Shown: positions 1-35,427 of the stretch, one piece after another
Position numbering within the stretch: the first letter of the stretch is position 1
Layout of the letters: the number at the start of each line of letters is the position of its first letter
Virus record (IMG/VR): IMGVR_UViG_3300013126_000013
Origin: a virus
Taxonomy: Duplodnaviria > Heunggongvirae > Uroviricota > Caudoviricetes
Direction: 5' to 3' (one strand)
DNA length: 42,811 nt
The notes under the pieces: model-generated
The model's database searches: none
What the model was told of the DNA's origin: nothing
The model's input: the letters and a program-made list of their open reading frames with translations, nothing else
Made by a program: the position numbers and the translations under genes

Positions 1-113
1 TGTTCCATAAAGATTCGAAGATCCTCTTTGCTTTGAATATTGTTAGTCACAAGTAAAGAATGATTTTTGAGTAGGTTTGAATGTTCTTCAATTAGCGCTT
101 TGTTGAGCTTCAT
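1..113 (-). CDS. 5' part of a DUF3050-like (heme-oxygenase-like fold) protein, truncated by the window edge; not in the ORF track
   Basis: ATG at 113 with AAGGA upstream. Reads MKLNKALIEEHSNLLKNHSLLVTNNIQSKEDLRIFME(H/Q)..., resembling the DUF3050 N-terminus (L..H.L...I...EDLRIFMEH). Overlaps the end of the upstream rSAM gene. Confidence 0.55.
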   Translation of the reverse strand, partial: MKLNKALIEEHSNLLKNHSLLVTNNIQSKEDLRIFME

Positions 114-1443
114 TTCTTTTCCTTAATCCATTAATATATCTTCGCATATAATCTGTTGGTTCTGGTACATGTTTCATCACAACTGGTTGCCCAAAAAGCA
201 ATTGAAACGCGTGAAGTTGAATATTCCCCCACCAAACTTTTTCGAGAGCGCAATTAGAATAAAATACATGATCAGGAAACTTAATTGGACAAGAAGATCT
301 GCACAAGCGTTTCACTGGGCACTTCATGCAATGATTCTTCTTGCGTAGGATGTCCATACCCTTAATTTCTACCTTTGTCACATCTTCAAGACGACCGGCA
401 ATAAAGCTTCCATCTGTATGCGGACACAAGCGAACATTACCTTGAATATCAACTGATAAAATGTCGTTTGAGTCTGCGCCACATCCAGACTTTGTAGTGA
501 TAGGTGTGGCTCTTTTCAGAAACTTTGCGTATTCAATAATGCCTTCTTCTGAATACACTACGTTATTCTTTAAGAATCTTTTTCGCTCGATGTCAAGCAA
601 AGACTCTTGAGTGAACTGAAAAAGATGTGAAGCAAAATCTTTTAGTTTCTCTCCACGAAGAATATAATTTGACGAAGCTTCACCTGTATCGTGTACATCG
701 TAATTCTTTGCAGGAATAAACGTGATCTTCATGTATTTCTGGTCAACATCATTCGATTTACAAAAGTCCATGAAGTAATCATTGATTGCATAGAGGTCAT
801 GATTCTCGTTACTTACAACTGTCGAGAATCCTAACCCTACGTTTGGGAGACCTATTAGCTGCTTGACAACGTCGACTTTCTTTGAATTCTTCAGTATGTC
901 TTCTCCACGCAGTTTCTCTTGTCCAACTGCATCGTGTGAAAGACTAATGAGTACTCTTGCTTTTAACGATCGAAAGAAGTCAACGTGCTTTTGTACAAAT
1001 GCTGACCCATTTGTTGAAATAAAGAATTCACGATCAGGCGAATCGAAGAAAGACATAATGGCAACCATATCTTTCCAATAAAGAAATGGTTCACCTCCCC
1101 AAAGTTCTACTCGATGAAGTCTTTCAAGATTGAGACTACGCTGGACGTTTGTTATAAACGTCTCTGTGTAAATAGACTGTGGTCTTTCGAGCGGATTTCC
1201 AATATCCTTTTGCATGCAATATGTGCAGTTATAGTTACATGCATGACCCAGCAGAATTCGAATAGCAATTGGATTGTTTACTTTACTTGTAACACCATGA
1301 TTCTTTTCTTCTGCTTCATAATACGAAAGATTCCGCTCTGGAGGCAGGTTTAGTTGATCACCTAGAGTGTTAAATAACTTATTGTTATGTGAGTCATAAT
1401 AGAAAGATGTGCCATCTTTCAGTTCATAGTATTGATAATCCAT
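88..1443 (-). CDS. Radical SAM/SPASM-domain protein (451 aa)
   Basis: CNYNCTYC cluster motif, WGGEPF motif, and SPASM cysteines CGADS..VDIQGNVRLCPH..CMKCPVKRLCRSSCP..C. Confidence 0.92.
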   Translation of the reverse strand: MDYQYYELKDGTSFYYDSHNNKLFNTLGDQLNLPPERNLSYYEAEEKNHGVTSKVNNPIAIRILLGHACNYNCTYCMQKDIGNPLERPQSIYTETFITNVQRSLNLERLHRVELWGGEPFLYWKDMVAIMSFFDSPDREFFISTNGSAFVQKHVDFFRSLKARVLISLSHDAVGQEKLRGEDILKNSKKVDVVKQLIGLPNVGLGFSTVVSNENHDLYAINDYFMDFCKSNDVDQKYMKITFIPAKNYDVHDTGEASSNYILRGEKLKDFASHLFQFTQESLLDIERKRFLKNNVVYSEEGIIEYAKFLKRATPITTKSGCGADSNDILSVDIQGNVRLCPHTDGSFIAGRLEDVTKVEIKGMDILRKKNHCMKCPVKRLCRSSCPIKFPDHVFYSNCALEKVWWGNIQLHAFQLLFGQPVVMKHVPEPTDYMRRYINGLRKRNEAQQSAN

Positions 1444-1823
1444 TATGCGAGTAGGTCATCCCATGCATGACTGTGTGATCGAAGTAGTTCAACCTTATTT
1501 CTCATATCAGTATAGTGATCTGCCGTAATAGTTCCGCCAGCAGAAAACGTTGTAGTAACATTTGTAAAACCTGACACCGTGGACACGGTGTCAGTCGTAG
1601 AAACAGTTCCGGGCGAAGCTAAGTTACCAAATTCTTTAATCTGGCTATAATCTGTAAGCGTATGAGTGTGAGCGCCAACTGCGTTAATGAAGTCTTTTAA
1701 CATGGTGTAATGCGCAGCTTGCACCGTATTACCAGAAGCTACTTGCGCTAACAGTGGTGTTGTATAAGTTGTACGAAGAGATAGAGCTGGGCTTATCGAT
1801 GTTGTACCTGCTACTGCCGGCAT
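1443..1823 (-). CDS. Small Thr-rich protein (126 aa) with two HxH-ending repeats; candidate rSAM substrate or fibre-tip module
   Basis: SD AAGGA; TAATG coupling to the downstream rSAM; internal repeat at G31-D58 and G96-D123; no Cys. The ORF is well supported, the function is inferred. Confidence 0.75.
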   Translation of the reverse strand: MPAVAGTTSISPALSLRTTYTTPLLAQVASGNTVQAAHYTMLKDFINAVGAHTHTLTDYSQIKEFGNLASPGTVSTTDTVSTVSGFTNVTTTFSAGGTITADHYTDMRNKVELLRSHSHAWDDLLA

Positions 1824-1833
1824 GTTTAAATCC

Positions 1834-2979
1834 TTATTTAAAACTTATTATAGGAGCCGGATCGCCTGATGGGAAGTATAAACCAACCTCTGTTCTTCGG
1901 TATCCTAGCTCTATAAGCTTGTGATAGTATTTCGAGTTTTCGCTTAACATCATCTTTGGTATAAAGTTGAATTCTCTATTCACTACAAATGTATCTACTG
2001 TATTTATATAGTAGTCTCTAAATTTTTGAGCAGTAGCGTCTAATGCTGGTTGTAGCTCTTGAAAGAAAGAGCTATATAATTTAAACTTTCCGTCGATCAT
2101 ATCATACATAAACGCTCTATGATCAAAGTCGCCGTCCATAGTGTGGAACGGTTCCCAATTTATGTCTGTTGCGTCATCAATACTATAGAAGAAACGATCA
2201 CCATATAAGTGAAGTGATCCACGGTAGACCTGATATGTTCTATCATTATAACACAACACGTGGCTATTTTGATAATCAAACAGACCCTGTAGATCATGAT
2301 CAGCATTGCCTAATTCGTTATCTTTAACACTTCTCTTTCTATAATCGTTATGAAGAGACGTTACAATACCTTTATCGTTTATCCATTCAACGAGCTCTTT
2401 TGCGTGATATGGTAATTCTGTTTCTGTGGTTTTGATTACCTTGACTTTATGCAAATCGTATTTGTGAATATAATCTTGCAGTATCTCAATGATCTTGTTG
2501 TAGTTTTTCTTTGAGTTTACTTTGTTCATAAACTCTTCACTCAACGCAACTTCAGATAATCCTTTCATGTTAAGTTCCATGAGAGTTTTATGTTGCTTTA
2601 TGAGAGCATTATCAGTCATACCATATTCGAACGTAGAAGCATGTTCTTTATACCAGGAATAGACGTACGGATAGTTTTCTTTGAGGTACAATAAATCGTC
2701 GACGACTCTGATAACATAGAAGTAACTGAAAATCTCGTACCAACGCTTTTCTTCTTCAGCTGTTATCTTAACTGGCACAGCGCTTGCATAATATGGTAGG
2801 TGCTGATTTAGCTTTTGTTTAATATAGCAGACCTGACAATTTGCTCCACAATAATATTTGTTAGTGGGACTAAATGTAATATCATGATCTAAAGGTGCTA
2901 ATGCATCTTCAGTTATGAAGTATGCGCTATTATCTTTGAATTTTCTAAATTCTTCACCGGTGTAACTACTCATATCCAA
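1834..2979 (-). CDS. Divergent radical SAM protein (381 aa) without SPASM domain
   Basis: CGANCQVC (CxxxCxxC) near the N-terminus; no GGEP motif and no C-terminal Cys cluster. Confidence 0.65.
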   Translation of the reverse strand: MDMSSYTGEEFRKFKDNSAYFITEDALAPLDHDITFSPTNKYYCGANCQVCYIKQKLNQHLPYYASAVPVKITAEEEKRWYEIFSYFYVIRVVDDLLYLKENYPYVYSWYKEHASTFEYGMTDNALIKQHKTLMELNMKGLSEVALSEEFMNKVNSKKNYNKIIEILQDYIHKYDLHKVKVIKTTETELPYHAKELVEWINDKGIVTSLHNDYRKRSVKDNELGNADHDLQGLFDYQNSHVLCYNDRTYQVYRGSLHLYGDRFFYSIDDATDINWEPFHTMDGDFDHRAFMYDMIDGKFKLYSSFFQELQPALDATAQKFRDYYINTVDTFVVNREFNFIPKMMLSENSKYYHKLIELGYRRTEVGLYFPSGDPAPIISFK

Positions 2980-4063
2980 TCCAATGCAATAACGTTGGTT
3001 GCTGTTTTAATTTATGTAAATGTCTAACCATCAGGCTAATCGTTTTGTAGAAGTCAACACACTTGCCTCTAGGTTCTTCTTCAAACATGTGATACAAATA
3101 CTTTAACCCGCAAGCATCTCTCAAGTCACAAGTTTGGCATCCAGGCAGTATAAAGTCTTCTTCACTTTTTACGCGGTCGAGATACTGTTGACCTCTCCAT
3201 CGACCTACTCGAAACTCTTTTCTCTTATACTCAAGATAATCAAACTCCGGATATAGATAACCGTCTGGTGATAGAATTAACTTACCATGATTGTTCAAGT
3301 ATTGCTTATCTATCTTATCGTAATTACCATCGATATTCAGGTTGATTCCTTGAACGTAGAGAGAATGAATAAATCGCATTAGGTAAATACTATACCACTT
3401 TATGTCAAAGTCGTCAATCAATACTTTAAACTTTTGCTTTCCTCGATGATGCCGAAGAGGAATCAAATTTACCGTGTCACATCTACTTTCTTTACACGCG
3501 CTTATTACGGCTGAAAGAGTGTGTTCGTTGAACCCATCCGGCGGGCAAACAAATTGAAACATGAGATAACAATTGTTTCTGTACAAGACATCGGCTAGAC
3601 CCTTTAGATCGATCTTTTCACGATTGATTTCTTGATAATTGAAGTCATAGCTCAATGTAATATGTATGTGGTTCCACTTTTGAAAGAACCATTCATTCTC
3701 TACAATTAACGAACCGTTTGTAGTGATGTAATATTCAACGCTATCACCAAAAAGTGGATGAAGCAACTCCATGAGCTGGTCAATTCTCTTAATGTAGAGA
3801 AATGGTTCTCCACCATGAAAAGATATTGCTTTCAATTCTTTTGCGTGTTCTTTTGCGAGAGTCATAAATTTAACGATCTCGTCAAAGTCACGCTTTAACA
3901 AGTTTTGAGAACCGATCTCATCGCGAATATAGGCTCTATCACAATACACACAGTCGAAGTTGCAGAAGTCTCCGAGGTATATTGTAATTGCTTTTATTCC
4001 AGTAAAGTCGCGAGACTTGTCTTGTTGATTGAGTTCTGTTTGAATATGATGGTCGATATGCAT
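2966..4063 (-). CDS. Radical SAM protein with partial SPASM/twitch-like C-terminus (start may be GTG 4078 or ATG 4063)
   Basis: CNFDCVYC, FHGGEPFL, YYITTNG, LSPDGYLYP, CQTCDLRDAC..C. Confidence 0.88.
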   Translation of the reverse strand: MHIDHHIQTELNQQDKSRDFTGIKAITIYLGDFCNFDCVYCDRAYIRDEIGSQNLLKRDFDEIVKFMTLAKEHAKELKAISFHGGEPFLYIKRIDQLMELLHPLFGDSVEYYITTNGSLIVENEWFFQKWNHIHITLSYDFNYQEINREKIDLKGLADVLYRNNCYLMFQFVCPPDGFNEHTLSAVISACKESRCDTVNLIPLRHHRGKQKFKVLIDDFDIKWYSIYLMRFIHSLYVQGINLNIDGNYDKIDKQYLNNHGKLILSPDGYLYPEFDYLEYKRKEFRVGRWRGQQYLDRVKSEEDFILPGCQTCDLRDACGLKYLYHMFEEEPRGKCVDFYKTISLMVRHLHKLKQQPTLLHWIGYE

Positions 4064-5637
4064 TGTATGTAATAACACTTCACTATGTGAGAGTCAGGAT
4101 GGAATGTGAATTCTGGATAGCCATACGTTTTTGCTAGTATGTTGTATAGTTCTCTCAGATCTTTTGCCCCGAGCCACTCGTACATGATTTCCTCTGGCGT
4201 TTGAAGATCATTTCTGATCGAGATATAATGATCAAACATATCTTGACCCATTACATTTCCGCCAAGCGCTTCTCGAAAGAACGTTAACTCTGCTGACATA
4301 ACTTGTGGGCCAAGTTCTTCTAAGCGCTTGGCTCTCTTCTTTACATGTCGCATAAAGATCTTCTTACTTACGTCAGTTTGAAAATCAACGTATAGCTTCA
4401 CAATCTTTTGGCACATATCATCCGGTCTGAATATTCTTGATCCAGTATCAAGATTTCCTGCAGGGCATTGATAACATGCATTCTGATAATCACAAGTTCT
4501 GCACTGTTCCTCGGTTTGGAACATTTCATTATAAGCATTCTGAAAAGTCTTATAACGATCTACATATACTTTATCTTGAATCACATTTCCAAGTACAGCA
4601 ATGTCAGCTCCGTTTGATTTCTGATTTGTAAAGAAGTAACACCCTGAAAAGTCACCCGATGCATCAATAGCAACCATGTGTGAACCAACCATACAGTTTG
4701 AATCTTCTTTTTGGCCAACGCCTTCAGAAAACTTAATGTATAGATCATCGTACATTTCAAGAGCATTGAAAATCTTCGATCTCATCGATTGCCAGTTTTC
4801 TTCTTTCCAAGAAATAAACCCATGTTTTGAATCAAGCACGAGAGGATGCACAACCATATTGCGCACACCAAGAGAATACAGCTCGTCGATAAAGTTACCC
4901 ATGTCACGACTTGTTTCTTCGGAGAGTGTAGCACGAATTACAACTCGCATAGGATCATCAACAGTATCAACTGCTTTCTTGATTACTCCTTTCAGCTTGT
5001 TCATTTGAGCTGGAGTAATTTCACGATGATCGATAGTCGAATTGAAAGTATCAAGACTAATCATCATATGAGTGTATGACTTACTAAAATAGAATTCTGT
5101 AAATTCATCGTTCAGCAAAAGTCCGTTTGTACACATCGAGATATATGTGCCACGGTAATCACTATAATTTGAACTGAGTTCTTCGTCGTATGTTTCGATA
5201 AATTCTTTGATCAAAGGTTTATGAATCAGTGGCTCACCACCAAAGAATTGAAACACTTTCTTCTGGCCGTTATTACGGGAATTCATCCAATCATAAACTT
5301 GCTTTAGTGATTCTTTTGTAAACCGCCCAAAGTCTTTATTATGTTGCTCATAGCAATAAGAGCATGCAAGATTGCATGCATTCGTAAGCATTGCATTTAC
5401 TTGCACAAGATCCTTGAAAAGAACCTCTGCTTCAGAAAATGGAACTGCTGCTTCTTCGGACTTGGGAAGAACTGTGATGAGCTTATTAGATTTTTGACCT
5501 TTACTGGAAATGTTAATAGTTTCAACGGTGGTATGAAGAGTTCCTTCTTGGTCAATAACGGAAGGAGTATGATTTTTTAATCTGTTCTTTTGTGCTTCGC
5601 TTAAAACTCTTTTCACATTCACATAATTATCTGACAT
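3994..5637 (-). CDS. Radical SAM/SPASM peptide-maturase-like protein (547 aa)
   Basis: CNLACSYCY, FFGGEPL, CTNG; SPASM CMVG..IDASGDFSGC..CRTCDYQNACYQCPAGN..C; ATG directly abuts the stop of the 63-aa Cys-tailed peptide. Confidence 0.92.
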   Translation of the reverse strand: MSDNYVNVKRVLSEAQKNRLKNHTPSVIDQEGTLHTTVETINISSKGQKSNKLITVLPKSEEAAVPFSEAEVLFKDLVQVNAMLTNACNLACSYCYEQHNKDFGRFTKESLKQVYDWMNSRNNGQKKVFQFFGGEPLIHKPLIKEFIETYDEELSSNYSDYRGTYISMCTNGLLLNDEFTEFYFSKSYTHMMISLDTFNSTIDHREITPAQMNKLKGVIKKAVDTVDDPMRVVIRATLSEETSRDMGNFIDELYSLGVRNMVVHPLVLDSKHGFISWKEENWQSMRSKIFNALEMYDDLYIKFSEGVGQKEDSNCMVGSHMVAIDASGDFSGCYFFTNQKSNGADIAVLGNVIQDKVYVDRYKTFQNAYNEMFQTEEQCRTCDYQNACYQCPAGNLDTGSRIFRPDDMCQKIVKLYVDFQTDVSKKIFMRHVKKRAKRLEELGPQVMSAELTFFREALGGNVMGQDMFDHYISIRNDLQTPEEIMYEWLGAKDLRELYNILAKTYGYPEFTFHPDSHIVKCYYIQCISTIIFKQNSINKTSLATLLE

Positions 5638-5829
5638 TTAGATGCTGCCTCGAGAACAGTTACACTGACAGTTCGAAGTATAGTCATCACTAAACGTATG
5701 GCTGTGCTGAATTAGCGCATCAAGCACATCAACCATCTGTCGAAAAGATGCTGCGTCAATGGTCTGCCCAGTCGTCTTCGCTGTAGTGGATCCAGCTGCG
5801 GTGAATGTGCTTGTGTTATCTGCAACCAT
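5638..5829 (-). CDS. 63-aa candidate precursor peptide with HSH motif and C-terminal NCQCNC
   Basis: SD AAGGA; TAA-ATG adjacency to the 547-aa rSAM; shares a motif with the 126-aa protein. Confidence 0.8.
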   Translation of the reverse strand: MVADNTSTFTAAGSTTAKTTGQTIDAASFRQMVDVLDALIQHSHTFSDDYTSNCQCNCSRGSI

Positions 5830-5834
5830 GTTCG

Positions 5835-6842
5835 TTATCCTTTAGCTACGATAAATTCTATCTTATATTTGCCCGCAGTAGCAGTACGATCATACCTATT
5901 TATAATTGAATCTATATTGTATTCTAAGGTAATATACCCAAAGTGTCGAGTCGGATCTACATGTATTTTTCCGTCCTTCACTTTTACAGTTAAATTGGTT
6001 TTGATTTCTCTGTCAAATTTTATAGCGCTTCCGTACTTACCGAAGTATGTGCCGCCCTCGTACTCATGTATAGTAAACTGGGACGTAGTAAAGATTGTAT
6101 TTCTATTCACCATATACGCTCCAGAACCTTCAATTCTTGGCACTAAAAAATATTCTTCTACAGTAGCGTCATAGGCATCCATACTAAACACATGATGAGA
6201 ATTGTCATAAACGTTCGAATCAATACTGGGCATTGATACCAGATGCGGGTTGAGCACACAGATAACTAGTTCTTTGTTTTTCGTTCTTTTAAAAACACAG
6301 TACGTTACTGTGGCGATAGAAGCTAATCCGTCGATTGGATTGTTATCGCCACTTATGTTAATCACATTAAAATCATCGTCTCGAGCATAGTAATAAGATT
6401 TAGCCATCAGGGTTTTTTTGTTCATAGCGATATTGCTGAGTGGCGTTCCCAGTGCCACCCACGAATACTTTTCTAAATACTCATACACTTCATCAAGATT
6501 AATAACTCTACTGTTGTCTGGATCTAAGCTAACGCTTGGAGTCAAATATTCTTTGAGAATGAGTTGGCCCCTCGACTCGCCTACTTCAGTATTCATTCCC
6601 GAATTATTCGTTTCTATCACGTATTTAAATGATTCAGACTCAAACTGCTCAAGTACCGGCGCTTTCAGTGTATGAATACGTTCATCTTTTACTATATTGG
6701 CAAGTGAAGATCTTCCAGAATTAACTGGCATGTATAGTCCATTAAATGACCACTTATCACCGATGGCAAGATTCATTACATCAGTACAATTTTCCCAAAT
6801 AGGAGGTCGTCTTGACGCCCAAATGAAGGCCCAATTAATCAT
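5835..6842 (-). CDS. Hypothetical protein (335 aa) within the rSAM cluster
   Basis: Long ORF, ATGA overlap with the upstream gene, no recognised motif. Confidence 0.75.
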   Translation of the reverse strand: MINWAFIWASRRPPIWENCTDVMNLAIGDKWSFNGLYMPVNSGRSSLANIVKDERIHTLKAPVLEQFESESFKYVIETNNSGMNTEVGESRGQLILKEYLTPSVSLDPDNSRVINLDEVYEYLEKYSWVALGTPLSNIAMNKKTLMAKSYYYARDDDFNVINISGDNNPIDGLASIATVTYCVFKRTKNKELVICVLNPHLVSMPSIDSNVYDNSHHVFSMDAYDATVEEYFLVPRIEGSGAYMVNRNTIFTTSQFTIHEYEGGTYFGKYGSAIKFDREIKTNLTVKVKDGKIHVDPTRHFGYITLEYNIDSIINRYDRTATAGKYKIEFIVAKG

Positions 6843-7414
6843 AGTGACCTCATATATTCTATTATTTCTTCGGCTGAATTTCCATCAAAAAACACATCAA
6901 ATTTATCTTTATGACTTCTTAAAAAGTTCGAATAAGATTCTTGAAATAAATTTGCAGCTTCTTCGCTTAGATTTTCATGTGTTACAAGATGATCGATACT
7001 GCGCGGTGTTACCCATCCAATATAGGTATGAGGTACCTGAGGTCGATTGCCCGAATACGCAATAGGCAAAACAACGAGTCCATTTAATTCTTTATCTAAA
7101 TATGTGGTCGCTTCATACTTTAGAAATATGAATCGATTCATGTCATGAAAAGCTTCTTCAAAAAACTTTATGTATGATTCTTGGTCTTTAAAAGATTCGA
7201 AGACGTACTTATAGTTTCCGGATTTAAATGCATCGACGATATCTTTACTATATTTGTGATGTATCAAATTCTTTGTGATAATATCAAGAAAATACGCATC
7301 TTCCATGCAATATTGAATAAAATTATCGACATACCAAGGATTTACGCTATTACGTATTTTGTTGTTGACGTCGTCAATTTCAATATTCATTGCTAATACA
7401 ATTCTTTTTAGCAT
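6839..7414 (-). CDS. Hypothetical protein (191 aa) within the rSAM cluster
   Basis: Overlaps both neighbours on the same strand; no recognised motif. Confidence 0.7.
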   Translation of the reverse strand: MLKRIVLAMNIEIDDVNNKIRNSVNPWYVDNFIQYCMEDAYFLDIITKNLIHHKYSKDIVDAFKSGNYKYVFESFKDQESYIKFFEEAFHDMNRFIFLKYEATTYLDKELNGLVVLPIAYSGNRPQVPHTYIGWVTPRSIDHLVTHENLSEEAANLFQESYSNFLRSHKDKFDVFFDGNSAEEIIEYMRSL

Positions 7415-9435
7415 GGATTTACCTCTATTGTCTTAAACATTTTGTTTGATCCAGACACAGAACATAGTTTAATGAAATATCTGTTTACTCTCTCATTCAT
7501 GTCGTATTTATGCCAATCAATGTTGTGATGAAGGTCTGTGTATGTTTTATCCAATGGAGTATTAACATATGTACCTTTGATCAAATTTTCCGACATCCAA
7601 TCATATTCACTTATGAATTGTGTAGGATTATCGGGATTATAATCAATCCACTTAACAGAATTGATGCTCCAGTTAACTAGATCATCGAGCTTCTCATCTT
7701 CTCCAAACTCGTTTATGATCCAAGCCTTGACTGCTTGGTAAAATTTATGGCGATTGAGGTTGATCATGATGTTGATCAGAGCTGGCATCTTTGCGTACAA
7801 CTTCCATGGTAGACCATCTAGTCGATAGTATTCGAAGTTGATCGCACTTTTTTCCTTTACTTTCTCCTGAGCCTGCAGTATAATGCTATTAAGCACAGAA
7901 AATTGGATAGATTCTAAATAGTCAATGCTGATGAATGTCTTATAGAATCTCTGATAAAAAGTAGAGTGTGGTATACCGATAGAGTCTAAATACTGAGTAA
8001 TTCTGCGAAGGTAGCCTTCAGTCTCCATCGTGAAGATAATACCATCAGACACAAGCATCTCAACATAGTCTTCTCGAGTGTATGACATAGTAGCTACAAC
8101 AATCTTCGATGGCTGTACATACTCTGGTGCTTCGATAAGACCTCTTTGTTTGATCAAAGACCCACTCATCAGTACATCTTCACGAATAACGGCGTCTTTT
8201 GTAGATTCAGTTAAAGATTCAATCGTCTCGAGCTTAAACTTTTTGATGTAATCAGGATGTGAAGCGGGTGATGTTGGAAGAAGATGCCATGTGTATTTTT
8301 CCCAGAACACATTTAGCTTTGCCATTTCACCAGCTGCAAAGTAGTAGTTCTGCAGTGTGGTACCAGGAAGGCCTCGAATTAATTCTGCTCGAATCTTAAT
8401 GCCAAACTCTTCACGAAGTTCATTATAAGCTTTAAATTGCTTTTCCCACGGCTCATCAATTCGATCAATGTTTTTCAGGACTTGTGGATCCATGTCTTGC
8501 ATCGAGATCTTGAAACCAGATGATAGACCATGTTGAGCCATAAGTCTATCGATCTTGTATACGTTTGATTTCTTTGATTTGCTTAAACCAGCAAACACTA
8601 TTTCTTTTGGCGCGCCATATTTTGCTTTGAGCTCGCAAACATACTCCATGATTTCTACATCGCGATCAAGCTGACCGAGGTTTGCTTCGACCATGTGTAA
8701 GTCTTCTAGAGCGCCATTTTCTGCAAGCCATGTTAAGTCTTCAATAATATCTTCAGTTGGACGAAATGAAACCTTTGAGTTGATTCCACCGCTCCACTCG
8801 CAGAACGTGCATCCATACGGGCATCCGCGATGAGTTTCGTAGATAGCCTGAAGCGTTACACCTGGAATGCGATTATCGATCACATCTTTGATATAGTATT
8901 TATTACGTTCAAAGATTTTCTTTGGCCAAGTAAATAAACGCTTGTTAAATACAACAGACGAAGTGATATAACTATCGTCCTTCGCCATCACCATAAATGG
9001 GACTTTCATCCAATCTTTATCAGTCTCTATTTGATAGAGCAATTCGTTTATGAAAGGCTCTCCATACCCATCAGTTTGGCACGTAAAATCTATGTACGGG
9101 TATTTCTTAAAATAATCTGGGTCTTCCTTATATTCACAATAAGGACCACCGAATGCAATATGAACGTAAGGTCTAATTTCTTTAATTAGCCGAGCTACTT
9201 CTCGAGACAATCCTACATTCCATACATAGACGGAGAATCCCACAAGTGTAGGATCTTTTGACAAGATATCATCGACAAGTTTATGAACGTCATCCGCTCT
9301 TGAAGAAGAAATTGGGTAGTGCCAATTCCACTTAGCACTACCCTTATAATTATCTTCTACATATGATTTAAACGAAAGCCATGCGTAGTCATATACATTA
9401 TCGCGTATGGTGTAATTTACATAAACAAAATTCAT
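7408..9435 (-). CDS. Cobalamin (B12)-binding radical SAM protein, class B methyltransferase-like (675 aa)
   Basis: N-terminal B12-binding motif LVGFSVYVWN...HIAFGGP followed by ETHRGCPYGCTFCEW; SD AAGGA. Confidence 0.9.
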   Translation of the reverse strand: MNFVYVNYTIRDNVYDYAWLSFKSYVEDNYKGSAKWNWHYPISSSRADDVHKLVDDILSKDPTLVGFSVYVWNVGLSREVARLIKEIRPYVHIAFGGPYCEYKEDPDYFKKYPYIDFTCQTDGYGEPFINELLYQIETDKDWMKVPFMVMAKDDSYITSSVVFNKRLFTWPKKIFERNKYYIKDVIDNRIPGVTLQAIYETHRGCPYGCTFCEWSGGINSKVSFRPTEDIIEDLTWLAENGALEDLHMVEANLGQLDRDVEIMEYVCELKAKYGAPKEIVFAGLSKSKKSNVYKIDRLMAQHGLSSGFKISMQDMDPQVLKNIDRIDEPWEKQFKAYNELREEFGIKIRAELIRGLPGTTLQNYYFAAGEMAKLNVFWEKYTWHLLPTSPASHPDYIKKFKLETIESLTESTKDAVIREDVLMSGSLIKQRGLIEAPEYVQPSKIVVATMSYTREDYVEMLVSDGIIFTMETEGYLRRITQYLDSIGIPHSTFYQRFYKTFISIDYLESIQFSVLNSIILQAQEKVKEKSAINFEYYRLDGLPWKLYAKMPALINIMINLNRHKFYQAVKAWIINEFGEDEKLDDLVNWSINSVKWIDYNPDNPTQFISEYDWMSENLIKGTYVNTPLDKTYTDLHHNIDWHKYDMNERVNRYFIKLCSVSGSNKMFKTIEVNPC

Positions 9436-9443: not shown

Positions 9444-12296
9444 TTATAGGATAACAGCCTCTACCATTAGCGATCCATCTTCAAGAGCAATTGCGAATGA
9501 CCAGGCACTTCTGCCGTTGTCCACATGCGCATAACCCGGAGTAGTTGAAGGAGCTAGTCTGTCGCCCTTCTTGCAGCCACCGATTACTTTAACCGGAACG
9601 CGACCCTTCAGAGCGATTGCTGTACCACCTTCTAGATCACTGTTCATGAGATAAGCCGGCTTTTCCGAAACCACACCTAGCACTGCATGTGCATTATTAA
9701 CATCCGCCGCGGTTACTTCTGCTGAACCGCCGACAGCAATTACTGTACCGACTTCATAGTCTTGATCTGCAAGATAGTTTTCTGCAAGGTCAGCGTACTG
9801 AGCAGTTGTTGCAGTACCGTTAAATGTGGTAGCAAACACCGTTGCAAATCTAAGTGTAGACGAACCTAAGTTATAAACGTTAGTCGTATCTGGCAATGCG
9901 GATCCACTATAGCGAAGTGTTGGGAATGTCTTCGTACCAGAGATTATTTGTGTACCTGACGTGCGTACTACTGTTTCATCTACTGTAAAAGTTCTATTAG
10001 CTGATAGATCACCACCTCCAGCTAAACCATCTCCTGCTGTGACACTTCTAGATGTTCGAACGATTGTAGTAGGAATTCGTGCATCATCCACATTTCCGGA
10101 TGTGATATTTGTGCCATTAATATTAGTAATAGCAGAACCAATACCAGCAAATGATACCGCCGTAATCGTATTCGCAGCGAAGTTACCAGAAGCATCACGG
10201 GCTACAACTTTTCCAGCAGTTGCAAGGTTAGTTGCATCCACATCCCATGTTACTGCTGCTGAACCGTTGAAGTTTGATCCGGTAAGATAAGCTCCAGCGG
10301 TATGTGCTTGGTTCGTATTTGCGGTGACTGTTATATTAGCCGAACCGTTGAAACTTACACCGTTAATCGTTCTTGCAGTAGCAAGAGTCGTTGCTGTCGT
10401 GGCGTTACCGACAAGATCTGCAGTGATTGTGTTTGCAGCAAAGTTACCAGAAGCATCACGGGCTACAACTTTTCCAGCTGTAGAAGTTGTGGTAGCATCA
10501 ACCGCCCATGTAGTTGCAGCTCCACCGTTGAAGTTTGATCCAGTGAGATATGTACCACGAGTAAGAGTGTTTGGTGTATTTGCCGTAATTGTGATTGCTG
10601 CAGAACCATCAAAGTTAACACCGTTTATCGCGCGGGCTGTAGCAAGAGTTGTAGCCGTTGAAGCATTTCCAACCAGAGCTGCAGTGATAGTATTTGCAGC
10701 AAAGTTACCTGAGGCGTCGCGAGCTACGACCTTCGAGGCAGTAGAAGTTGTAGTAGCATCAACAGCCCAAGTAGTGGCTGCTGAACCATCAAAGTTGGAG
10801 CCGGTAAGATAAGTACCACGAGTAAGAGTGTTATTCGTATTCGCTGTTACGGTAATATTTGCAGAACCGTTAAATGATACACCATTGATCGTACGAGCAG
10901 TTTGTAATGTAGTAGCGGTAGATGCATTACCTACCAGTGCTGCGGTTACGGTCGTTGCAGTAACCGTATTGGACGTTACATTATTTGCAAATACCCTATT
11001 CCAGCGCATCAAGTCAGAGCCTACAGAATAAGAAACGTTTGCAGTAGGAATCAATGATGAGCCAACATTACTTGTAGTAACTGTTATAACGTCAACAGTA
11101 TTGGCCGTTACATTATTTGCAAATACCCTATTCCAGCGAGCGAGATTCGATCCAAGAGAATAAGAAACGTTTGCAGTAGGTAACACGTCAGTATCAAATC
11201 CGGCACTTCCAACAAATGACATCGTATTTGTCACGTTAAAATCGTGTACATCAGACGAACTTACTACAAGTGTAACGTTCGATGAGAAATAAGATGTTCC
11301 ATACACATACAAGTCACGGCGTATAATCATGTCACGATCAACTTCAGCATCGACCTGAATGTTAACACTGTTTGCAACATCGAGATCTTTTACCCAAGCT
11401 TTATTCCAAGTGGCAGAACTTGAACCAATATTGTATGTAGTTGTAGTATCCGGAAGTATGCCTGTCGAAGATACTATAAGAGGTGTCACTGTAGCTGAAG
11501 TATTCGCGAGACTTAAATTGAGCGAGTATAGAGTAGAGTTTGTACTTTGTGTCTTAATAGTTCTTGCACTTGTGCCCTTTAATCTAACTTCATCTGTAGC
11601 CTCAAGAGCTGTTACTGTTGTGTTAGATCCGGTAAATGCAGCATTTGCAGTTACAGTGAGAATACCGTCGATATTTGTGTTTGAATTAAAATCAGCTAAG
11701 CTATTTACTACAAGAGAATCTGACGCGTTGAAGCCAAGAGTAATTACGTCGACGTTAGCATTTAGCGAGGCGGCAGTTACTATTGTATTTGAAGTAACAT
11801 CAAAGGTTGTACCGTCAATATCAACGCGAGTGCCAGTGAATTCCGAATTCGTACGTACAAACAATTGACCTGCGTTGATGGTCGTATTTGCTGCAGAAAT
11901 TAAGACCGTCTTTGTCGAATCAATTGCTACGTTACTCGTAAATGTTGTATTATTCGAGTTAATCGTAAAGTTATCGGTGTTTGCCGAAATGCGAACAAGG
12001 GGTGATTCAGAAAAGATAGTATTTGAAACTATTGTTAGGTCACCACCAGTACTTACCGATCCGCCTCTGAGTCTATTCGATACTACAACTGTATTCGCTG
12101 AGAAGATACCTTCAAGATGAGCGTTACCAGTAGTGTATCCACCAACGGTTACGTTTGGCTGTGGTTGCGTTACCGAAGTGAGTACTACAGTTCCCATATC
12201 GTATACGAGAGAGTTGGTAGTATCGACCCATGAAGCAAAAGTATCTGTTGCTTCAACGTTCGCACCTGCAGCTAAATAGATGTGTGCCTTTGCCAT
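9444..12296 (-). CDS. Tail fibre (950 aa) with tandem repeats and a C-terminal peptidase G2-like intramolecular chaperone
   Basis: N-terminal TDTF..W...TN motif; T/A/N/V/G-rich; P...Y.lGS...W repeats; C-terminal YADLAENY...GVVSEKPAYLMN...ALKGRVPVKV. Confidence 0.85.
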   Translation of the reverse strand: MAKAHIYLAAGANVEATDTFASWVDTTNSLVYDMGTVVLTSVTQPQPNVTVGGYTTGNAHLEGIFSANTVVVSNRLRGGSVSTGGDLTIVSNTIFSESPLVRISANTDNFTINSNNTTFTSNVAIDSTKTVLISAANTTINAGQLFVRTNSEFTGTRVDIDGTTFDVTSNTIVTAASLNANVDVITLGFNASDSLVVNSLADFNSNTNIDGILTVTANAAFTGSNTTVTALEATDEVRLKGTSARTIKTQSTNSTLYSLNLSLANTSATVTPLIVSSTGILPDTTTTYNIGSSSATWNKAWVKDLDVANSVNIQVDAEVDRDMIIRRDLYVYGTSYFSSNVTLVVSSSDVHDFNVTNTMSFVGSAGFDTDVLPTANVSYSLGSNLARWNRVFANNVTANTVDVITVTTSNVGSSLIPTANVSYSVGSDLMRWNRVFANNVTSNTVTATTVTAALVGNASTATTLQTARTINGVSFNGSANITVTANTNNTLTRGTYLTGSNFDGSAATTWAVDATTTSTASKVVARDASGNFAANTITAALVGNASTATTLATARAINGVNFDGSAAITITANTPNTLTRGTYLTGSNFNGGAATTWAVDATTTSTAGKVVARDASGNFAANTITADLVGNATTATTLATARTINGVSFNGSANITVTANTNQAHTAGAYLTGSNFNGSAAVTWDVDATNLATAGKVVARDASGNFAANTITAVSFAGIGSAITNINGTNITSGNVDDARIPTTIVRTSRSVTAGDGLAGGGDLSANRTFTVDETVVRTSGTQIISGTKTFPTLRYSGSALPDTTNVYNLGSSTLRFATVFATTFNGTATTAQYADLAENYLADQDYEVGTVIAVGGSAEVTAADVNNAHAVLGVVSEKPAYLMNSDLEGGTAIALKGRVPVKVIGGCKKGDRLAPSTTPGYAHVDNGRSAWSFAIALEDGSLMVEAVIL
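10164..10946 (-). repeat. Three tandem 261-nt (87-aa) repeats in the tail fibre
   Basis: Units start at 10946, 10685 and 10424: TA(A/D)LVGNA.TATTL.TAR.INGV.F.GSA.IT.TANT...KVVARDASGNFAANTI. Confidence 0.95.
10960..11190 (-). repeat. Two 44-aa-spaced (132 nt) repeats in the tail fibre
   Basis: PTANVSYS(L/V)GS.L.RWNRVFANNVT twice; 33-nt identical block starting at 10974 and at 11106. Confidence 0.9.
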
Positions 12297-12511
12297 TACT
12301 GCTTACTTGCTCCTAATTCTCGTACCGCTTGGCGGATGTCTAACATCATAGACATTATGTCTTGTACGTTACGCTCAAGCTTATCTAAGCGTAATGCATC
12401 TTCTTTTTTCTTTTTGTGCTCTGCGAGAGCTCTTCTATTTGTATTTATTAGAGCTCTCGTAGTAACATCACGCGAATAATCTTTTTCTTCGGTTTGAATA
12501 AACTCTTGCAT
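12296..12511 (-). CDS. Small conserved T4-like hypothetical protein (71 aa)
   Basis: RD..T.ALINT motif plus a coiled-coil; TAATG-coupled on both sides. Confidence 0.8.
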   Translation of the reverse strand: MQEFIQTEEKDYSRDVTTRALINTNRRALAEHKKKKEDALRLDKLERNVQDIMSMMLDIRQAVRELGASKQ

Positions 12512-32030: not shown

Positions 32031-32038
32031 TATAAATA
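32031..32038 (+). promoter_or_regulatory. T4-type late promoter for gene 4
   Basis: Exact TATAAATA 33 nt upstream of the gp4 ATG. Confidence 0.8.
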
Positions 32039-32054
32039 CGTAGGTAGTTTAAGA

Positions 32055-32062
32055 TATTTATA
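32055..32062 (-). promoter_or_regulatory. T4-type late promoter for the gp48-to-baseplate/tail operon
   Basis: Exact TATAAATA on the minus strand 33 nt upstream of the gp48 ATG. Confidence 0.8.
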
Positions 32063-32071
32063 TGGACATTC

Positions 32072-32530
32072 ATGGCGTATTACCAGGGCAGATTCAAACC
32101 AAAGAATCCACAAAAATATAAAGGTGATCCGACTAATATCGTATACAGATCTGGTTGGGAACTCAAACTATTCAATTATCTCGATGAACATCCAAACGTA
32201 ATCAAATGGGGTAGCGAGGAATTAGTTATTCCCTACAAGAGTCCTATCGACGGCCGTTGGCATCGATACTTTCCAGACGTTTATGTAGAACAGATCGGTA
32301 TAGAAGGAAAAAAGCAAACTATATTGATTGAAGTAAAGCCAAAAAGTCAAACAGTTGCACCGAATCCAGATAATAAGTTAACCGCTAAAGGTAAACCTAC
32401 TAAACGTTACCTCACTGAGGTTATGACTTACGGGGTAAATCAGGCTAAATGGAAAGCAGCTCAAGAATTTTGTGCAGATCGAGGTTGGAACTTCTTAATC
32501 ATGACTGAAATAGAACTAGGTATTAAATAG
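32072..32530 (+). CDS. gp4: Head completion protein gp4 (TnsA-like nuclease fold)
   Basis: YQGRFKPKNPQKYKGDPTNIVYRSGWE...WGSEE..IPY.SP.DG..HRYFPD...IEVKP. Confidence 0.95.
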   Translation: MAYYQGRFKPKNPQKYKGDPTNIVYRSGWELKLFNYLDEHPNVIKWGSEELVIPYKSPIDGRWHRYFPDVYVEQIGIEGKKQTILIEVKPKSQTVAPNPDNKLTAKGKPTKRYLTEVMTYGVNQAKWKAAQEFCADRGWNFLIMTEIELGIK

Positions 32531-33115
32531 TTTGCAGTTATCGAAGTGCCATCTTTTCATTTGGTTAAGTTTACCAATTTTATTGCAATGTGGACAATTA
32601 ACGGTTGGCCTGGCTTTAGCGATACTTGAAAGAGATTCTTTATGAGATTCAGTAAAAATCATCCCTGTATGAGCATTTGACATATTTACTCTGTGTCTAT
32701 CGCTATATTTTCTTCCAATTTTTGCTTCAGACATCTTTTTTCTTTGGTAGTCAGATTTTTTAACGCCTCTAAATCTTTTTGATACTAGTGCTTTCTCTTC
32801 ACTTGACATTTGTCTTCCAAGTGTATTTGGTGGAGCTCTCCAGACCATATTGTAATATGTCTCATCTAAATCTGCGCGCACTCTTTTTAAAAAACGACTT
32901 TCTAATTTTTGAATATAGTTGTAATCTCTATGGTGTATAATTTTTACGCGTAAAAAGTCATTTGGCCTAGTGTTATATTCTCTTCTAAATACTGTGCCAC
33001 TTCCAATGTAAGAATAACCACGTGATCCGTTATGAATGCCGATATAACGCTTTTTTGTAAGTGTGTCTAGCCAAACATACAAATACGGTTTTGTAGCTAT
33101 GCTATAAATAGTCAT
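32516..33115 (-). CDS. Free-standing GIY-YIG (Seg-like) homing endonuclease with NUMOD3-type repeats
   Basis: YLY..KRYIGIH..YIGSG, later E; S....KMSEAK.G helices; C-terminal CPHC..G....RWHFDNCK. Confidence 0.85.
   Translation of the reverse strand: MTIYSIATKPYLYVWLDTLTKKRYIGIHNGSRGYSYIGSGTVFRREYNTRPNDFLRVKIIHHRDYNYIQKLESRFLKRVRADLDETYYNMVWRAPPNTLGRQMSSEEKALVSKRFRGVKKSDYQRKKMSEAKIGRKYSDRHRVNMSNAHTGMIFTESHKESLSSIAKARPTVNCPHCNKIGKLNQMKRWHFDNCKLFNT
33103..33110 (+). promoter_or_regulatory. Candidate late promoter for gene 2, embedded in the first codons of the antisense endonuclease gene
   Basis: Exact TATAAATA ~92 nt upstream of the gp2 ATG. Confidence 0.6.
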
Positions 33116-33187
33116 GCTGGAACTCCTAAGTTTCTAGAGTAGGTGGGGATTCTTCCCGGTCTCCCGTGACCTACATCAATATTTATA
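33116..33187 (-). promoter_or_regulatory. Late promoter plus structured leader of homing endonuclease 1
   Basis: TATAAATA-5nt-GTAGGT CAC GGGA(12 nt)TCCC C ACCTAC-TCTAGAAAC-TT-AGGAGTTCCAGC-ATG. Confidence 0.8.
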
Positions 33188-33201
33188 ATTTAAGGGTTCT
33201 T

Positions 33202-33792
33202 ATGGCGATTCTATTTGATACAGTCTTAACAAAAGGTATTCGAGCCGGCCAAATGCCAGCACGAACCGAGGCTGCGCGTCAGTGGTATCGTGATACAGCT
33301 CAAAGCTATAAGCGTATTGATGAACGTCAGCTAATGAAGGGCGATGCTGAGAGGCTCACAATGAAGCCTCTTGTTGGACAGATGTACATGTATTACTACG
33401 ACCCGAAGCATAAAGCAACTCTTCCTTATTATGATAGATTCCCATTAGTGTTTCCGTATCGTAAAGTGCCAGGCGGATTCATGGGTCTGAACCTACACTA
33501 TCTTCCGTATGTATATCGCGCTAAGCTTATGGATGCTCTATACGACGTGGCAAACAACGACAAGTTTGATGAAACGACGAAGCTTAAGTTGAACTACAAT
33601 ATCCTAAACGGATCTTCTAAGTTCAAGTATTTTGCTCCATGTGTGAAACACTACTTAACCGATCACTTACGTAGTCGGTTTCTCTATGTATATCCATCAG
33701 AATGGGATATCGCGTTGTTTCTTCCTACGGAAAGATTCCAAGGCGCAACAAAACAAAAAGTCTGGCAAGACTCAAAGAAACTCATAGTGTAA
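33202..33792 (+). CDS. gp2: DNA end protector protein gp2
   Basis: G.MYMYYYDPKHK.TLPYYDRFPLVFP...GFMGLNLHYLP..R; start placed at ATG 33202. Confidence 0.93.
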   Translation: MAILFDTVLTKGIRAGQMPARTEAARQWYRDTAQSYKRIDERQLMKGDAERLTMKPLVGQMYMYYYDPKHKATLPYYDRFPLVFPYRKVPGGFMGLNLHYLPYVYRAKLMDALYDVANNDKFDETTKLKLNYNILNGSSKFKYFAPCVKHYLTDHLRSRFLYVYPSEWDIALFLPTERFQGATKQKVWQDSKKLIV

Positions 33793-33802
33793 GGTCACCT
33801 CG

Positions 33803-34555: not shown

Positions 34556-34567
34556 TGGAGTTATACT

Positions 34568-35266: not shown

Positions 35267-35268
35267 CG

Positions 35269-35427
35269 TTGAGCCATACCAATCTACAAATCTACTATCA
35301 AGTAGTGTTTGGATTGGCTCAACACCATAAATACCAAATAAGTGAAATTGAAAACTTAATACCATTTGAACGAGACATTTACTATGATATGCTAATTCGC
35401 TTCATCGAATCTAAAAAGGAAAGCTAA
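35269..35427 (+). CDS. gp51: Baseplate hub assembly catalyst gp51 (52 aa, TTG start or -1 frameshift extension of gp26); not in the ORF track
   Basis: LSHTNLQIYYQVVFGLAQHHKYQISEIENLIPFERDIYYDML matches the gp51 pattern QHHKY...IEN..P.ERDIY; TAATG-coupled to the next gene. Confidence 0.85.
   Translation: MSHTNLQIYYQVVFGLAQHHKYQISEIENLIPFERDIYYDMLIRFIESKKES

Follow-up and report, generated by a model that had tools for sequence, protein, structure and literature searches.

Results

Organization of the cassette

This locus raises the question of what a phage might do with a series of radical SAM (rSAM) enzymes encoded among its tail-fibre genes. The window (i.e., the whole 42,811-nucleotide stretch analysed, IMG/VR record IMGVR_UViG_3300013126_000013) derives from a freshwater T4-like phage, in which a conserved group of rSAM enzymes, four or five in number, is encoded within the tail-fibre genes along with two small proteins. 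A 950-aa tail fibre is followed by a B12-rSAM gene, two orphans, p63, three clear rSAM genes, a divergent CxxxCxxC protein and p126 (Table 1). A preliminary description of the sequence had placed these genes on a single strand, beginning 8 nt after the fibre gene and with junctions of 10 nt or less throughout. The 8-nt gap was exact and every gene of the cluster was on the minus strand; not all junctions were so short, however, because rS547 and rS370 overlap by approximately 70–85 nt, and rS451 and the DUF3050 gene by 26 nt.

Table 1. Positions of cassette genes, neighbouring ORFs and internal promoter motifs in the window.
Feature	Coordinates	Strand	Remarks
DUF3050 gene, first 37 codons	1..113	-	runs off window
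rS451, radical SAM, probable SPASM	88..1443	-	PF04055 42.6 bits; TIGR04085 27.0 bits
p126, 126 aa, phrog_31780	1443..1823	-	small folded protein (model)
rS381, divergent radical-SAM-like, phrog_36229	1834..2979	-	CxxxCxxC motif
Second internal TATAAATA	2001..2008	-	177 nt before p126 start; kept in L018, L019 and L020
rS370, radical SAM	2966..4078	-	PF04055 42.8 bits; phrog_1802, full length
rS547, radical SAM, probable SPASM	3994..5637	-	PF04055 62.6 bits
p63, 63 aa	5638..5829	-	candidate substrate; stop adjoins rS547 start
o335	5835..6842	-	no family; core partner by iterated search
Internal TATAAATA	5897..5904	-	67 nt before p63 start; kept in L018 and L020
o191, 191-aa orphan	6839..7414	-	no family by Pfam, NCBIfam, PHROGs
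B12-rSAM, 675 aa	7408..9435	-	PF04055 32.9 bits; PF02310; KedN5-family best NCBIfam match
Tail fibre, 950 aa	9444..12296	-	tail-fibre PHROGs
71-aa ORF	12296-12511		fills apparent gap between the window's two large fibre genes

Late expression had been proposed from a promoter at 32062, with no terminator before the cluster. A T4-type late-promoter motif, TATAAATA, was indeed present at 32055–32062 on the minus strand, with two further copies inside the cluster. The motif occurred 8 times in the window against an expectation of 2.95, and six of these copies lay just before genes. Among relatives, late-promoter motifs were found before o335, p63, p126 and d110, and in T4-like relatives beyond L018 and L020 an equivalent motif stood upstream of p63 or o335. 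In the stretch from 32062 to the cluster, hairpins resembling terminators were no commoner than in shuffled sequence, and every one was intragenic.

Distribution and synteny

Seven genes (p126, p63, o335, rS547, rS370, rS381 and rS451) were present in all complete loci among approximately 40 IMG/VR viral contigs and RP12, in a nearly fixed order, and the same core was carried by three contigs found in searches starting from p126. p126, p63, o335 and the four rSAM-type genes form a unit that is inseparable across these loci and lies within or next to tail-fibre genes. The cassette was flanked in T4-like and jumbo contigs alike by TF1819/TF950 homologues or other fibre-like ORFs. In one contig (L067), nuclease and ThyX genes followed the cassette, rather than fibre genes. 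Tail-fibre regions are also insertion hot spots for cargo genes, where adjacency could arise without a functional link. In prokaryote genomes these genes were almost absent: a scan of 185,579 species, one genome each, returned a single close match, 92% identical, on a 2.9-kb MAG contig; the remaining 12 matches were 25–33% identical.

Radical SAM enzymes

Four of the five rSAM enzymes originally proposed exceeded the PF04055 gathering threshold of 29.5 bits (B12 enzyme, rS547, rS370 and rS451; Table 1) and all four possessed the CxxxCxxC cluster motif. The fifth, rS381, matched nothing in Pfam or NCBIfam; its assignment stands on the motif (C44/C48/C51), which was invariant in 22 homologues, and on a weak profile match to rS547 (hhalign E = 7.9e-5, probability 61%) that keeps the two motifs in register. 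For rS547 and rS451, previously labelled rSAM/SPASM, the radical SAM part of the label held, while the SPASM scores sat just below the cut-off for rS547 (PF13186, 21.2 against 21.5 bits) and exactly at it for rS451 (TIGR04085, cut-off 27 bits). Both proteins aligned to the PapB, anSME and DynA models over the SPASM region. An N-terminal extension of approximately 80 aa and a C-terminal one of approximately 120 aa were evident in rS547 (alignment A6), and the C-terminal region of rS370 contained, by eye, a short Cys motif reminiscent of an incomplete SPASM/twitch domain.

Among NCBIfam models, peptide maturases gave the best matches to rS547 (PapB, NF047865, 122 bits; CXXX-repeat maturase, 88; QhpD, 73), ahead of MoaA (46). 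PapB was also the top-scoring model for rS370 (50 bits) and rS451 (46 bits), for which viperin, MoaA and twitch-type models scored about as highly as peptide maturases. Membership of the PapB family of ranthipeptide maturases was rejected for all three enzymes, since the equivalog cut-off is 340 bits; the CXXX-repeat target maturase family (TIGR04115) was likewise rejected, given its cut-off of 350 bits and the CxC spacing of the substrate. rS547 is probably the first maturase of p63. The chemistry is a guess, because every enzyme match lies far under the family cut-offs.

The two small proteins

The N-terminus of p63 is variable and rich in Thr/Ser; it is followed by one helix-HxHxxxD unit and the C-terminal tail CQCNCSRGSI, an alternating Cys ladder of the pattern CxCxC(xCxC)xRG. 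Residues H42, H44, D48, Y50, C54, C58, R60 and G61 were invariant, and C56 nearly so (alignment A5); conservation extended over the whole of the C-terminal 40 residues. p126 contains two further helix-HxHxxxD units, making three copies in all, and was related to p63 by hhalign (93.8%, E = 1.8e-7). Its residues H52, H54, D58 and D123 were invariant, and G66, H117 and H119 nearly invariant (alignment A4). In comparison with L020, dN/dS was 0.014 for p63, 0.15 for p126 and 0.03 for o335; these small ORFs are under purifying selection, which is very strong for p63.

The p126 model (pLDDT 80) had RP12 ORF074 as its single fold match. A folded p126 is unlike a typical, unstructured precursor. Elsewhere the p126 domain occurred as an N-terminal module with varying C-terminal partners (Gly-rich, beta-propeller, ILEI-like or Hint), a layout associated with receptor-binding proteins.

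All complete loci contained p63, placed immediately upstream of o335 or rS547, as expected of a RiPP precursor. Binding of p63 to rS547 was predicted with a score of 0.56, against 0.01 for the best of three controls. This was classed as 'weak support': the mark for binding was passed by 58 of the 80 solved complexes used for calibration and by 2 of 110 mismatched pairs; of those passing, only 7 complexes, along with both mismatches, did so at 0.60 or less. Contacts agreed by at least 26% between runs, with a partner pLDDT of at least 44. The window cassette yielded no RRE (the RiPP domain for leader recognition), leader protease or exporter in searches with Pfam, NCBIfam or PHROGs.

Cys ladders in tail fibres of other phages

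Viral sequences were scanned with a blind DNA pattern for CNCNCNC, using out-of-frame loci as a control. This identified 39 in-frame ORFs, in 34 of which, encoding proteins of 53–616 aa, the ladder lay within 10 aa of the C-terminus. A cassette-family rSAM gene was found downstream, on the same strand, for 26 of these 34, and for none of 41 out-of-frame loci. Among the eight ladder ORFs without one, at least four had less than 1 kb of downstream sequence and six less than 2.5 kb. Tail-fibre PHROGs were matched by 8 of the 10 long ladder proteins (down to E = 1.8e-48). The p63-type Cys ladder is, in other phages, the C-terminal tip of bona fide tail fibres, followed by a cassette-type rSAM gene. 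In L062, three helix-HxH units and a long ladder were combined in one 207-aa protein, encoded after baseplate J and gpI and before three rSAM/SPASM genes and one B12-rSAM gene.

The tail fibres of the window displayed neither a Cys ladder nor an HxH motif by sequence and motif count, the 950-aa protein having no HxH motif and one Cys. The C-terminal end of the latter resembled, by eye, a self-cleaving fibre chaperone domain.

Accessory and tailoring genes

The B12 gene was limited to the window lineage, L021/22, L039–41 and L067. It was accompanied by o191 in the window lineage, L021/22 and L067, while o191 was not detected in L039–41; both genes are lineage-specific extras outside the conserved core. 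The B12 enzyme, which carries a long extra C-terminal region, scored 31.4 bits against PF02310 (cut-off 32.1) and 132 against KedN5 (cut-off 700), and is probably a C-methyltransferase. o335, present in one to three copies per locus by iterated search, was modelled as a beta-rich protein with an Ig-like C-terminal domain (pLDDT 82, pTM 0.84), in which fold searches recognised no enzyme fold.

The DUF3050-like ORF had been correctly named, as shown by the corresponding gene of L020, a relative 89–92% identical (PF11251, 263.6 bits, E = 2e-78), with the qualification that only its first codons fall inside the window. DUF3050 proteins are HamA/MgoB-type and heme-oxygenase-like. The gene was not detected in approximately one quarter to one third of loci complete on that side. 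Relatives carried additional genes for an Asp/Asn hydroxylase and a class-III aminotransferase, and L019 had a 173-aa ORF with, by eye, a methyltransferase-like glycine motif. An aldo/keto reductase was also found among relatives' genes. Such a changing set of tailoring genes is the pattern of a tailoring pathway.

Discussion

Proposed function

The preliminary description suggested, with due caution, that late-expressed enzymes tailor either small proteins of the virion or fibre tip or a phage RiPP, and the comparative evidence favours this reading. By a modest balance of probability, the cassette is a phage-specific system for the late, RiPP-like radical SAM maturation of p63, and probably p126, as stand-alone fibre-tip modules. 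In phages of this kind, part of the apparatus for host recognition is probably modified by enzymes, because the p63-type Cys tail is a real fibre tip in other phages. The SPASM-type enzymes rS547 and rS451 would, like the maturases of sactipeptides and ranthipeptides, join ladder cysteines through thioether-type cross-links, and rS370 and rS381 might introduce further cross-links or other changes; where a lineage has them, the B12 enzyme would methylate and DUF3050 would oxidise. The three helix-HxHxxxD units could then form a pseudo-trimer, maybe holding a metal ion in the manner of trimeric fibre HxH sites, and the stapled mini-complex, perhaps with the Ig-like o335, would join or assist the host-recognition apparatus. 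It is proposed more tentatively, at somewhat less than an even chance, that a radical SAM-stapled, metal-binding pseudo-trimer (p126 plus p63, or fused or fibre-borne forms) forms or caps the host-recognition fibre tip. Because the window's own fibres are without ladder and HxH, any physical connection of the small proteins to the fibre is drawn from synteny only. If true, a virion protein would here be matured covalently by enzymes in RiPP fashion, in a process widespread among uncultured T4-like and jumbo phages; no description of such enzymes modifying the host-recognition apparatus of a phage was found in the literature searched.

Alternatively, p63 (with p126) could be the precursor of a free cross-linked peptide or mini-protein outside the virion, either released at lysis or intracellular (e.g., an antimicrobial, signal, metal binder or anti-defence factor), with its place beside fibre genes reflecting a cargo hot spot. 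The combination of precursor, maturase and variable tailoring genes recalls bacterial RiPP clusters, and the non-fibre neighbours in L067 are consistent with it. So is virion mass spectrometry of RP31, which detected 32 proteins without the orthologues ORF68–76 (PMC5468394, Table S3); however, this negative result is weak, because the survey, of low depth, also missed the neighbouring YomR-like fibre-type proteins (PMC5468394). We judge a free RiPP unlikely, given that a protease and exporter are absent, that other phages carry the ladder as a covalent part of their tail-fibre proteins, that adjacency to fibres repeats in unrelated phage lineages, and that the p126 domain is combined with variable C-terminal domains in a receptor-binding-like layout.

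That the rSAM enzymes act elsewhere (on a glycan or lipid, on a nucleotide or DNA base, or on the large fibres themselves), with p63, p126 and o335 as metal-binding or scaffolding accessories, seems improbable. SPASM-type enzymes are typically modifiers of peptides or proteins, and the matches of rS547 to peptide maturases agree with this; moreover, the association of ladder and rSAM gene is specific, no DNA-modification or sugar-activation genes occur in the window cassette, and the window's fibres offer no ladder or HxH. Set against these points are the comparable scores of viperin, MoaA and twitch-type models for rS370 and rS451, the aminotransferases and aldo/keto reductase of relatives, which are enzymes usually acting on small molecules, and the phage rSAM enzymes known from DNA hypermodification pathways (PMC8989533). 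Least probable is a peptide-derived cofactor in the style of PQQ or mycofactocin, for which p63 residues would be cross-linked, excised and finished by DUF3050. The trio of small peptide, rSAM/SPASM enzyme and heme-oxygenase-like fold does recall PqqA, PqqE and PqqC, but DUF3050 is undetected in a substantial fraction of loci, a protease and PqqB/D-like genes are absent, p63 is conserved far beyond one short motif, and long fibre proteins bear the ladder too.

Comparison with known systems

A close parallel to the proposed maturation of p63 as a fibre-tip module is that of ranthipeptides and sactipeptides (PapB/PapA freyrasin, CteB/SCIFF; NF047865, TIGR04115), where an rSAM/SPASM gene likewise neighbours that of a substrate rich in Cys, with residues of the Asp/Asn/Glu/Gln type between the cysteines. 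The cassette differs in its score (122 against 340 bits), in having CxCxC after HxHxxxD rather than Cx3D or CXXX repeats, in its four rSAM-type genes without protease or exporter, and in being phage-exclusive and set in a tail-fibre context. QhpD (TIGR03906), an rSAM/SPASM enzyme that matches rS547 (E = 1.6e-20), puts several thioether cross-links in QhpC, the small gamma subunit of quinohemoprotein amine dehydrogenase, and there the modified protein remains a subunit of a larger assembly; the cassette has no dehydrogenase subunits, QhpE protease or QhpG, and its score is 73 bits against a cut-off of 453. The B12 enzyme shares a probable N-terminal B12-binding domain and an rSAM core with class B cobalamin-dependent rSAM methyltransferases (KedN5, PoyC/TsrM type), but differs in its low score, additional C-terminal region and accessory role.

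HxH metal sites are present in trimeric phage fibres and spikes, at the tip of T4 gp37, in gp12 and at the apex of P2 gpV. There, as in the cassette, HxH follows a helical or extended segment, with three copies per presumed assembly; in the cassette the copies are on two small chains (one in L062), with an invariant Asp at +4. Of 23 members, just 2 were hit by Pfam Phage_fiber, at best with E = 0.085, and no solved structure gave a match. Finally, ORF074–080 of the cultured Ralstonia jumbo phages RP12 and RP31 are an orthologous cassette (PMC5468394), for which the original paper lists annotations and gives no function (PMC5468394). In RP12 it consists of p126 (ORF074), an unannotated 65-aa p63 ORF, the o335-like ORF075, four rSAM-type genes and a DUF3050 gene annotated 'MgoB'. 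These phages are phiKZ-related, not T4-like, and lack the B12 enzyme and o191.

Phage type and gene order

The window derives from a lake-water phage of the T4-like type, whose baseplate protein gp6 was 45% identical to gp6 of the Sinorhizobium phages phiM7, phiM12 and phiN3; DNA near-identical to the window was present in lake metagenomes, and none was found among the cultured phages searched. A minus-strand run of genes, headed by the motif TATAAATA, opened with the tail-tube cap, hub and baseplate-wedge genes, and continued with a 1819-aa structural protein, a 71-aa ORF and a 950-aa tail fibre, in that order. The cassette began directly after this fibre, across the 8-nt gap noted in the preliminary description, with a 675-aa B12-type radical SAM (rSAM) enzyme, o191, o335, the 63-aa p63, rS547, rS370, rS381, the 126-aa p126 and rS451. 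The DUF3050-like ORF that was said to close the cluster was present, but only 37 of its codons lay inside the window. The 71-aa ORF was Lys/Glu-rich, and its position was also occupied by an ORF in two related loci (L004 and L024).

Coordinates of features in the window and in related viral loci
Feature	Sequence	Coordinates	Strand	Remark
TATAAATA at head of gene run	window	32055-32062	minus	
Six TATAAATA motifs in short intergenic regions	window (32031-38437)	32031+, 32055-, 33103+, 33180-, 38261-, 38430+	both	
71-aa ORF	window	12296-12511	minus	
Terminator-like hairpin	window	9314-9343	minus	12 bp, T-rich tail
Matches to metatranscriptome run X24	window	1414-1739, 3263-3510, 4050-4713, 9082-9363		~95% identity
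65-aa ORF of RP12	L001 (RP12 locus)	10871-11068		RP12 record about 82888-83085
p126 domain with Hint domain	L046	7488-8846		
207-aa protein, HxH units and ladder	L062	7829-8452		133-kb contig
Distant variant of the cassette	L059	4958-12675		543-kb contig
Hydroxylase- and desaturase-family genes	L064	113-3820		
Class-III aminotransferase gene	L024	7579-8853	minus	
Inserted 173-aa and 123-aa ORFs	L019	9350-10224		

Conservation and distribution of the cassette

A profile scan of IMG/VR produced 46 loci, with rS547 being 39-89% identical in about 40 of them. Iterated ORF searches showed that every complete locus possessed p126, p63, o335 (in one to three copies), rS547, rS370, rS381 and rS451; most also had DUF3050, while the B12 enzyme was limited to a few lineages, accompanied in most of these by o191. 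Synteny across T4-like phages, proposed beforehand as a check on the cluster, held for the seven genes, and their fibre or structural neighbours recurred. Among the T4-like relatives, the cassette stood between counterparts of the 1819-aa and 950-aa proteins and other large genes for structural proteins; two contigs had the fibre genes inverted and on the other side of the cassette, and in jumbo contigs the adjoining ORFs matched tail-fibre or virion PHROGs.

The only cultured phages with homologues of the cassette were the Ralstonia jumbo phages RP12 and RP31, where gene order was the same. In RP12 it comprised ORF074 to ORF080; between ORF074 and ORF075 lay a further 65-aa ORF, missing from the annotation, that was homologous to p63 (46% identity) and ended in NCNCNCACTRGSL. 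A scan of prokaryotes (one genome per species, 185,579 species) gave a single close match, 92% identical and situated on a 2.9-kb contig within a MAG, the remaining 12 matches being 25-33% identical. Searching 1.84 billion proteins with the p126 profile recovered 283 clusters (at 50% identity) and led to three informative contigs, all with p63 and o335, and with rSAM genes where they were long enough. Judged by these comparisons of sequence, the cassette is conserved and phage-only. Relative to L020, a close relative with 80-88% nucleotide identity, all genes were under purifying selection, and p63 was the most constrained (dN/dS = 0.014, dS about 0.95). A distant variant on L059 had a fibre-like gene followed by five rSAM genes, a gene for a 288-aa protein matching the p126 profile, and one for a 127-aa protein that combines a single helix-HxHxxxD unit with a Cys-rich tail (~13 cysteines).

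Radical SAM and accessory enzymes

Five rSAM enzymes had been claimed for the cluster. Four were assigned by Pfam (PF04055), i.e., rS547, rS370, rS451 and the 675-aa enzyme, which additionally matched a B12-binding domain; the fifth, rS381, had an invariant CxxxCxxC in 22 homologues and a weak alignment to the rSAM core of rS547. It matched no family in Pfam or NCBIfam, its profile matched nothing among solved structures, and it is considered here a putative rSAM-like protein. The SPASM-type C-terminal regions of rS547 and rS451 scored at or just below threshold, and the best scores of rS547 were to peptide maturases. Neither Pfam nor NCBIfam contained a family for o191, o335, p63 or p126, and a tblastn search of phages with the B12 enzyme returned one weak match and nothing else.

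Further genes were present in particular relatives. In L064, an Asp/Asn beta-hydroxylase-family gene and three fatty-acid-desaturase-family genes preceded the p126-like, p63 and o335 genes, and may encode further tailoring enzymes. One T4-like lineage (L024) carried a class-III aminotransferase gene between p126 and o335, on the opposite strand; a copy of TATAAATA lay within it, 137 nt before o335. In L019, a 75% identical relative, two ORFs were inserted between rS370 and rS381, the longer having a glycine-rich VGAGCG that, by eye only, resembles class-I SAM methyltransferases.

Structure of p63, p126 and o335

The N-terminal part of p63 was variable and Thr/Ser-rich, and was followed by a conserved amphipathic stretch with HxHxxxD at its end; the tail consisted of alternating cysteines (three in the window, five in most relatives), then Arg-Gly and two final residues. 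The helix-HxHxxxD unit occurred twice in p126, where both motifs were invariant or nearly so, and profile comparison aligned p63 with the second p126 unit (93.8% probability, E = 1.8e-7). A folded protein was predicted for p126 (pLDDT 80), for which the RP12 orthologue was the sole match in fold searches; against solved structures its profile matched only a His-tag artefact. Kinship with known fibre repeats was not established, since a lenient Pfam search with 23 homologues gave only sub-threshold Phage_fiber, YmaF and PTR matches. In some phages, the p126 domain formed the N-terminal part of longer proteins with variable C-terminal parts, these being Gly-rich (Gly_rich_2), beta-propeller, ILEI-like or Hint domains. 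The fusions to a C-terminal, self-cleaving Hint domain were seen in L046 and in two further proteins (P0105 and P0100). The predicted structure of o335 was beta-rich with an Ig-like C-terminal domain; fold searches (PDB, AFDB clusters, VIA-wide and Atlas) matched this domain generically (best Z = 7.7) and found no enzyme fold. ESM Atlas feature searches with o335, p126 and rS381 gave no usable match.

A distant contig, L062, encoded a 207-aa protein in which three helix-HxH units preceded an alternating ladder of 15 cysteines. Its gene lay downstream of baseplate J and gpI genes, and was itself followed by an aldo/keto reductase, a DegT-like fragment, three rSAM/SPASM genes and a B12-rSAM gene. 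The protein is read as a putative fusion of p126 and p63 logic, homology being at motif level only; the combination of three units and a ladder in a single chain suggests that the three HxH units may work together.

The cysteine ladder in fibre proteins

Viral contigs were scanned for DNA encoding CNCNCNC and, among the matches listed, 80 loci were examined, those with the motif out of frame serving as a control. The motif was in frame at 39 of these loci; in 34 of the 39, which encode proteins between 53 and 616 aa long, it was no more than 10 residues from the C-terminus. A cassette-family rSAM gene occurred downstream on the same strand in 26 of the 34, compared with 0 of 41 out-of-frame loci; among the eight C-terminal-ladder loci without one, at least four had less than 1 kb of downstream sequence and six had less than 2.5 kb. 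Eight of the 10 long ladder proteins among the matches listed matched tail-fibre PHROGs (down to E = 1.8e-48). Thus p63 is a stand-alone bearer of a tail that forms the fibre tip in other phages, and in either setting the tail goes with one kind of enzyme. Homologues of o335, p126 and rS381 were found, among the matches listed, only in contigs already known, so these three are probably specific to the subtype represented by the cassette, and the wider class would share just the ladder and the rSAM enzyme.

Timing of expression

The window contained 8 copies of the T4 late-promoter motif TATAAATA, where 2.95 would be expected. Six were just upstream of genes, and appear from their positions to be divergent late promoters; the remaining two, which precede p63 by 67 nt and p126 by 177 nt, were kept in close relatives. 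Other T4-like relatives had the motif before o335, p63 and d110, a structural gene that follows the cassette. Terminator-like hairpins were no more frequent than chance, in agreement with the earlier observation that no terminator separated 32062 from the cluster. Placement of the motif and chance-level hairpins together make late expression of the cassette likely, as a prediction, through read-through and internal promoters. Of the terminator-like sites in this region, the strongest lay ~90 nt inside the B12-rSAM coding region, with site counts at chance level. Short contigs from a freshwater metatranscriptome (X24) matched parts of p126/rS451, rS370, rS547, the B12 gene and the fibre, and were rejected as evidence of transcription because they may stem from DNA carry-over.

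Discussion

RiPP-like maturation is the best-supported model for the cassette. The SPASM enzymes would cross-link ladder cysteines, and the other rSAM proteins would add further changes together with variable tailoring enzymes: the B12 methyltransferase-like enzyme in the window, DUF3050 in most loci, and in relatives the class-III aminotransferase, Asp/Asn hydroxylase, fatty-acid-desaturase-family proteins and perhaps the 173-aa ORF of L019. The type of cross-link and the fate of the product are inferred, as is the role of HxHxxxD, which may be a metal site, a recognition element or a modification site. When rS547 was paired with p63 in a structure-based test, the support was weak: the pair scored 0.56, and the best of three controls 0.01 (contact agreement between runs at least 26%, partner pLDDT at least 44). 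Of 80 solved complexes, 58 reached the mark, as did 2 of 110 mismatched pairs; scores of 0.60 or less included only seven of the 80 complexes and both passing mismatches. Against RiPP-like maturation, the family-model scores of the enzymes were all far below cut-offs, and searches of the window's cassette revealed neither a leader protease nor an exporter or recognition domain.

A DNA-hypermodification pathway was set aside because kinase and transferase genes were absent, and the large fibres of the window were set aside as substrate because they have no HxH and only one or two cysteines each. The cassette could also adjoin fibres because the fibre region is an insertion hot spot for cargo genes. 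No cassette orthologue was detected in the RP31 virion proteome, from which the neighbouring fibre-like proteins were likewise absent. The maturation model is directly testable, since the cassette occurs in the cultured phages RP12 and RP31.

The RP12/RP31 paper (PMC5468394) lists annotations of the cassette genes and nothing more, while Nishimura et al. (PMC5332604) remarked that T4-like genomes from the environment contain many rSAM genes, for which they gave no function; if true, the model would account for their abundance. A whole class of phage host-recognition tips would then be chemically stapled after translation, which bears on fibre stability, receptor-binding prediction and phage engineering, as fibres of this kind would depend on their own enzymes and on Fe-S chemistry under anaerobic conditions. 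Established examples of radical SAM/SPASM cross-linking come from peptide natural products of bacteria and from a few enzyme subunits. The literature searched contained no description of such cross-linking in a virus particle protein, nor of this system; the new elements are the seven-gene core, the three-unit HxHxxxD architecture with its fused form, the promoter evidence and the controlled test of ladder, fibre and rSAM linkage. Core and architecture define a distinct subtype of cysteine-ladder systems.
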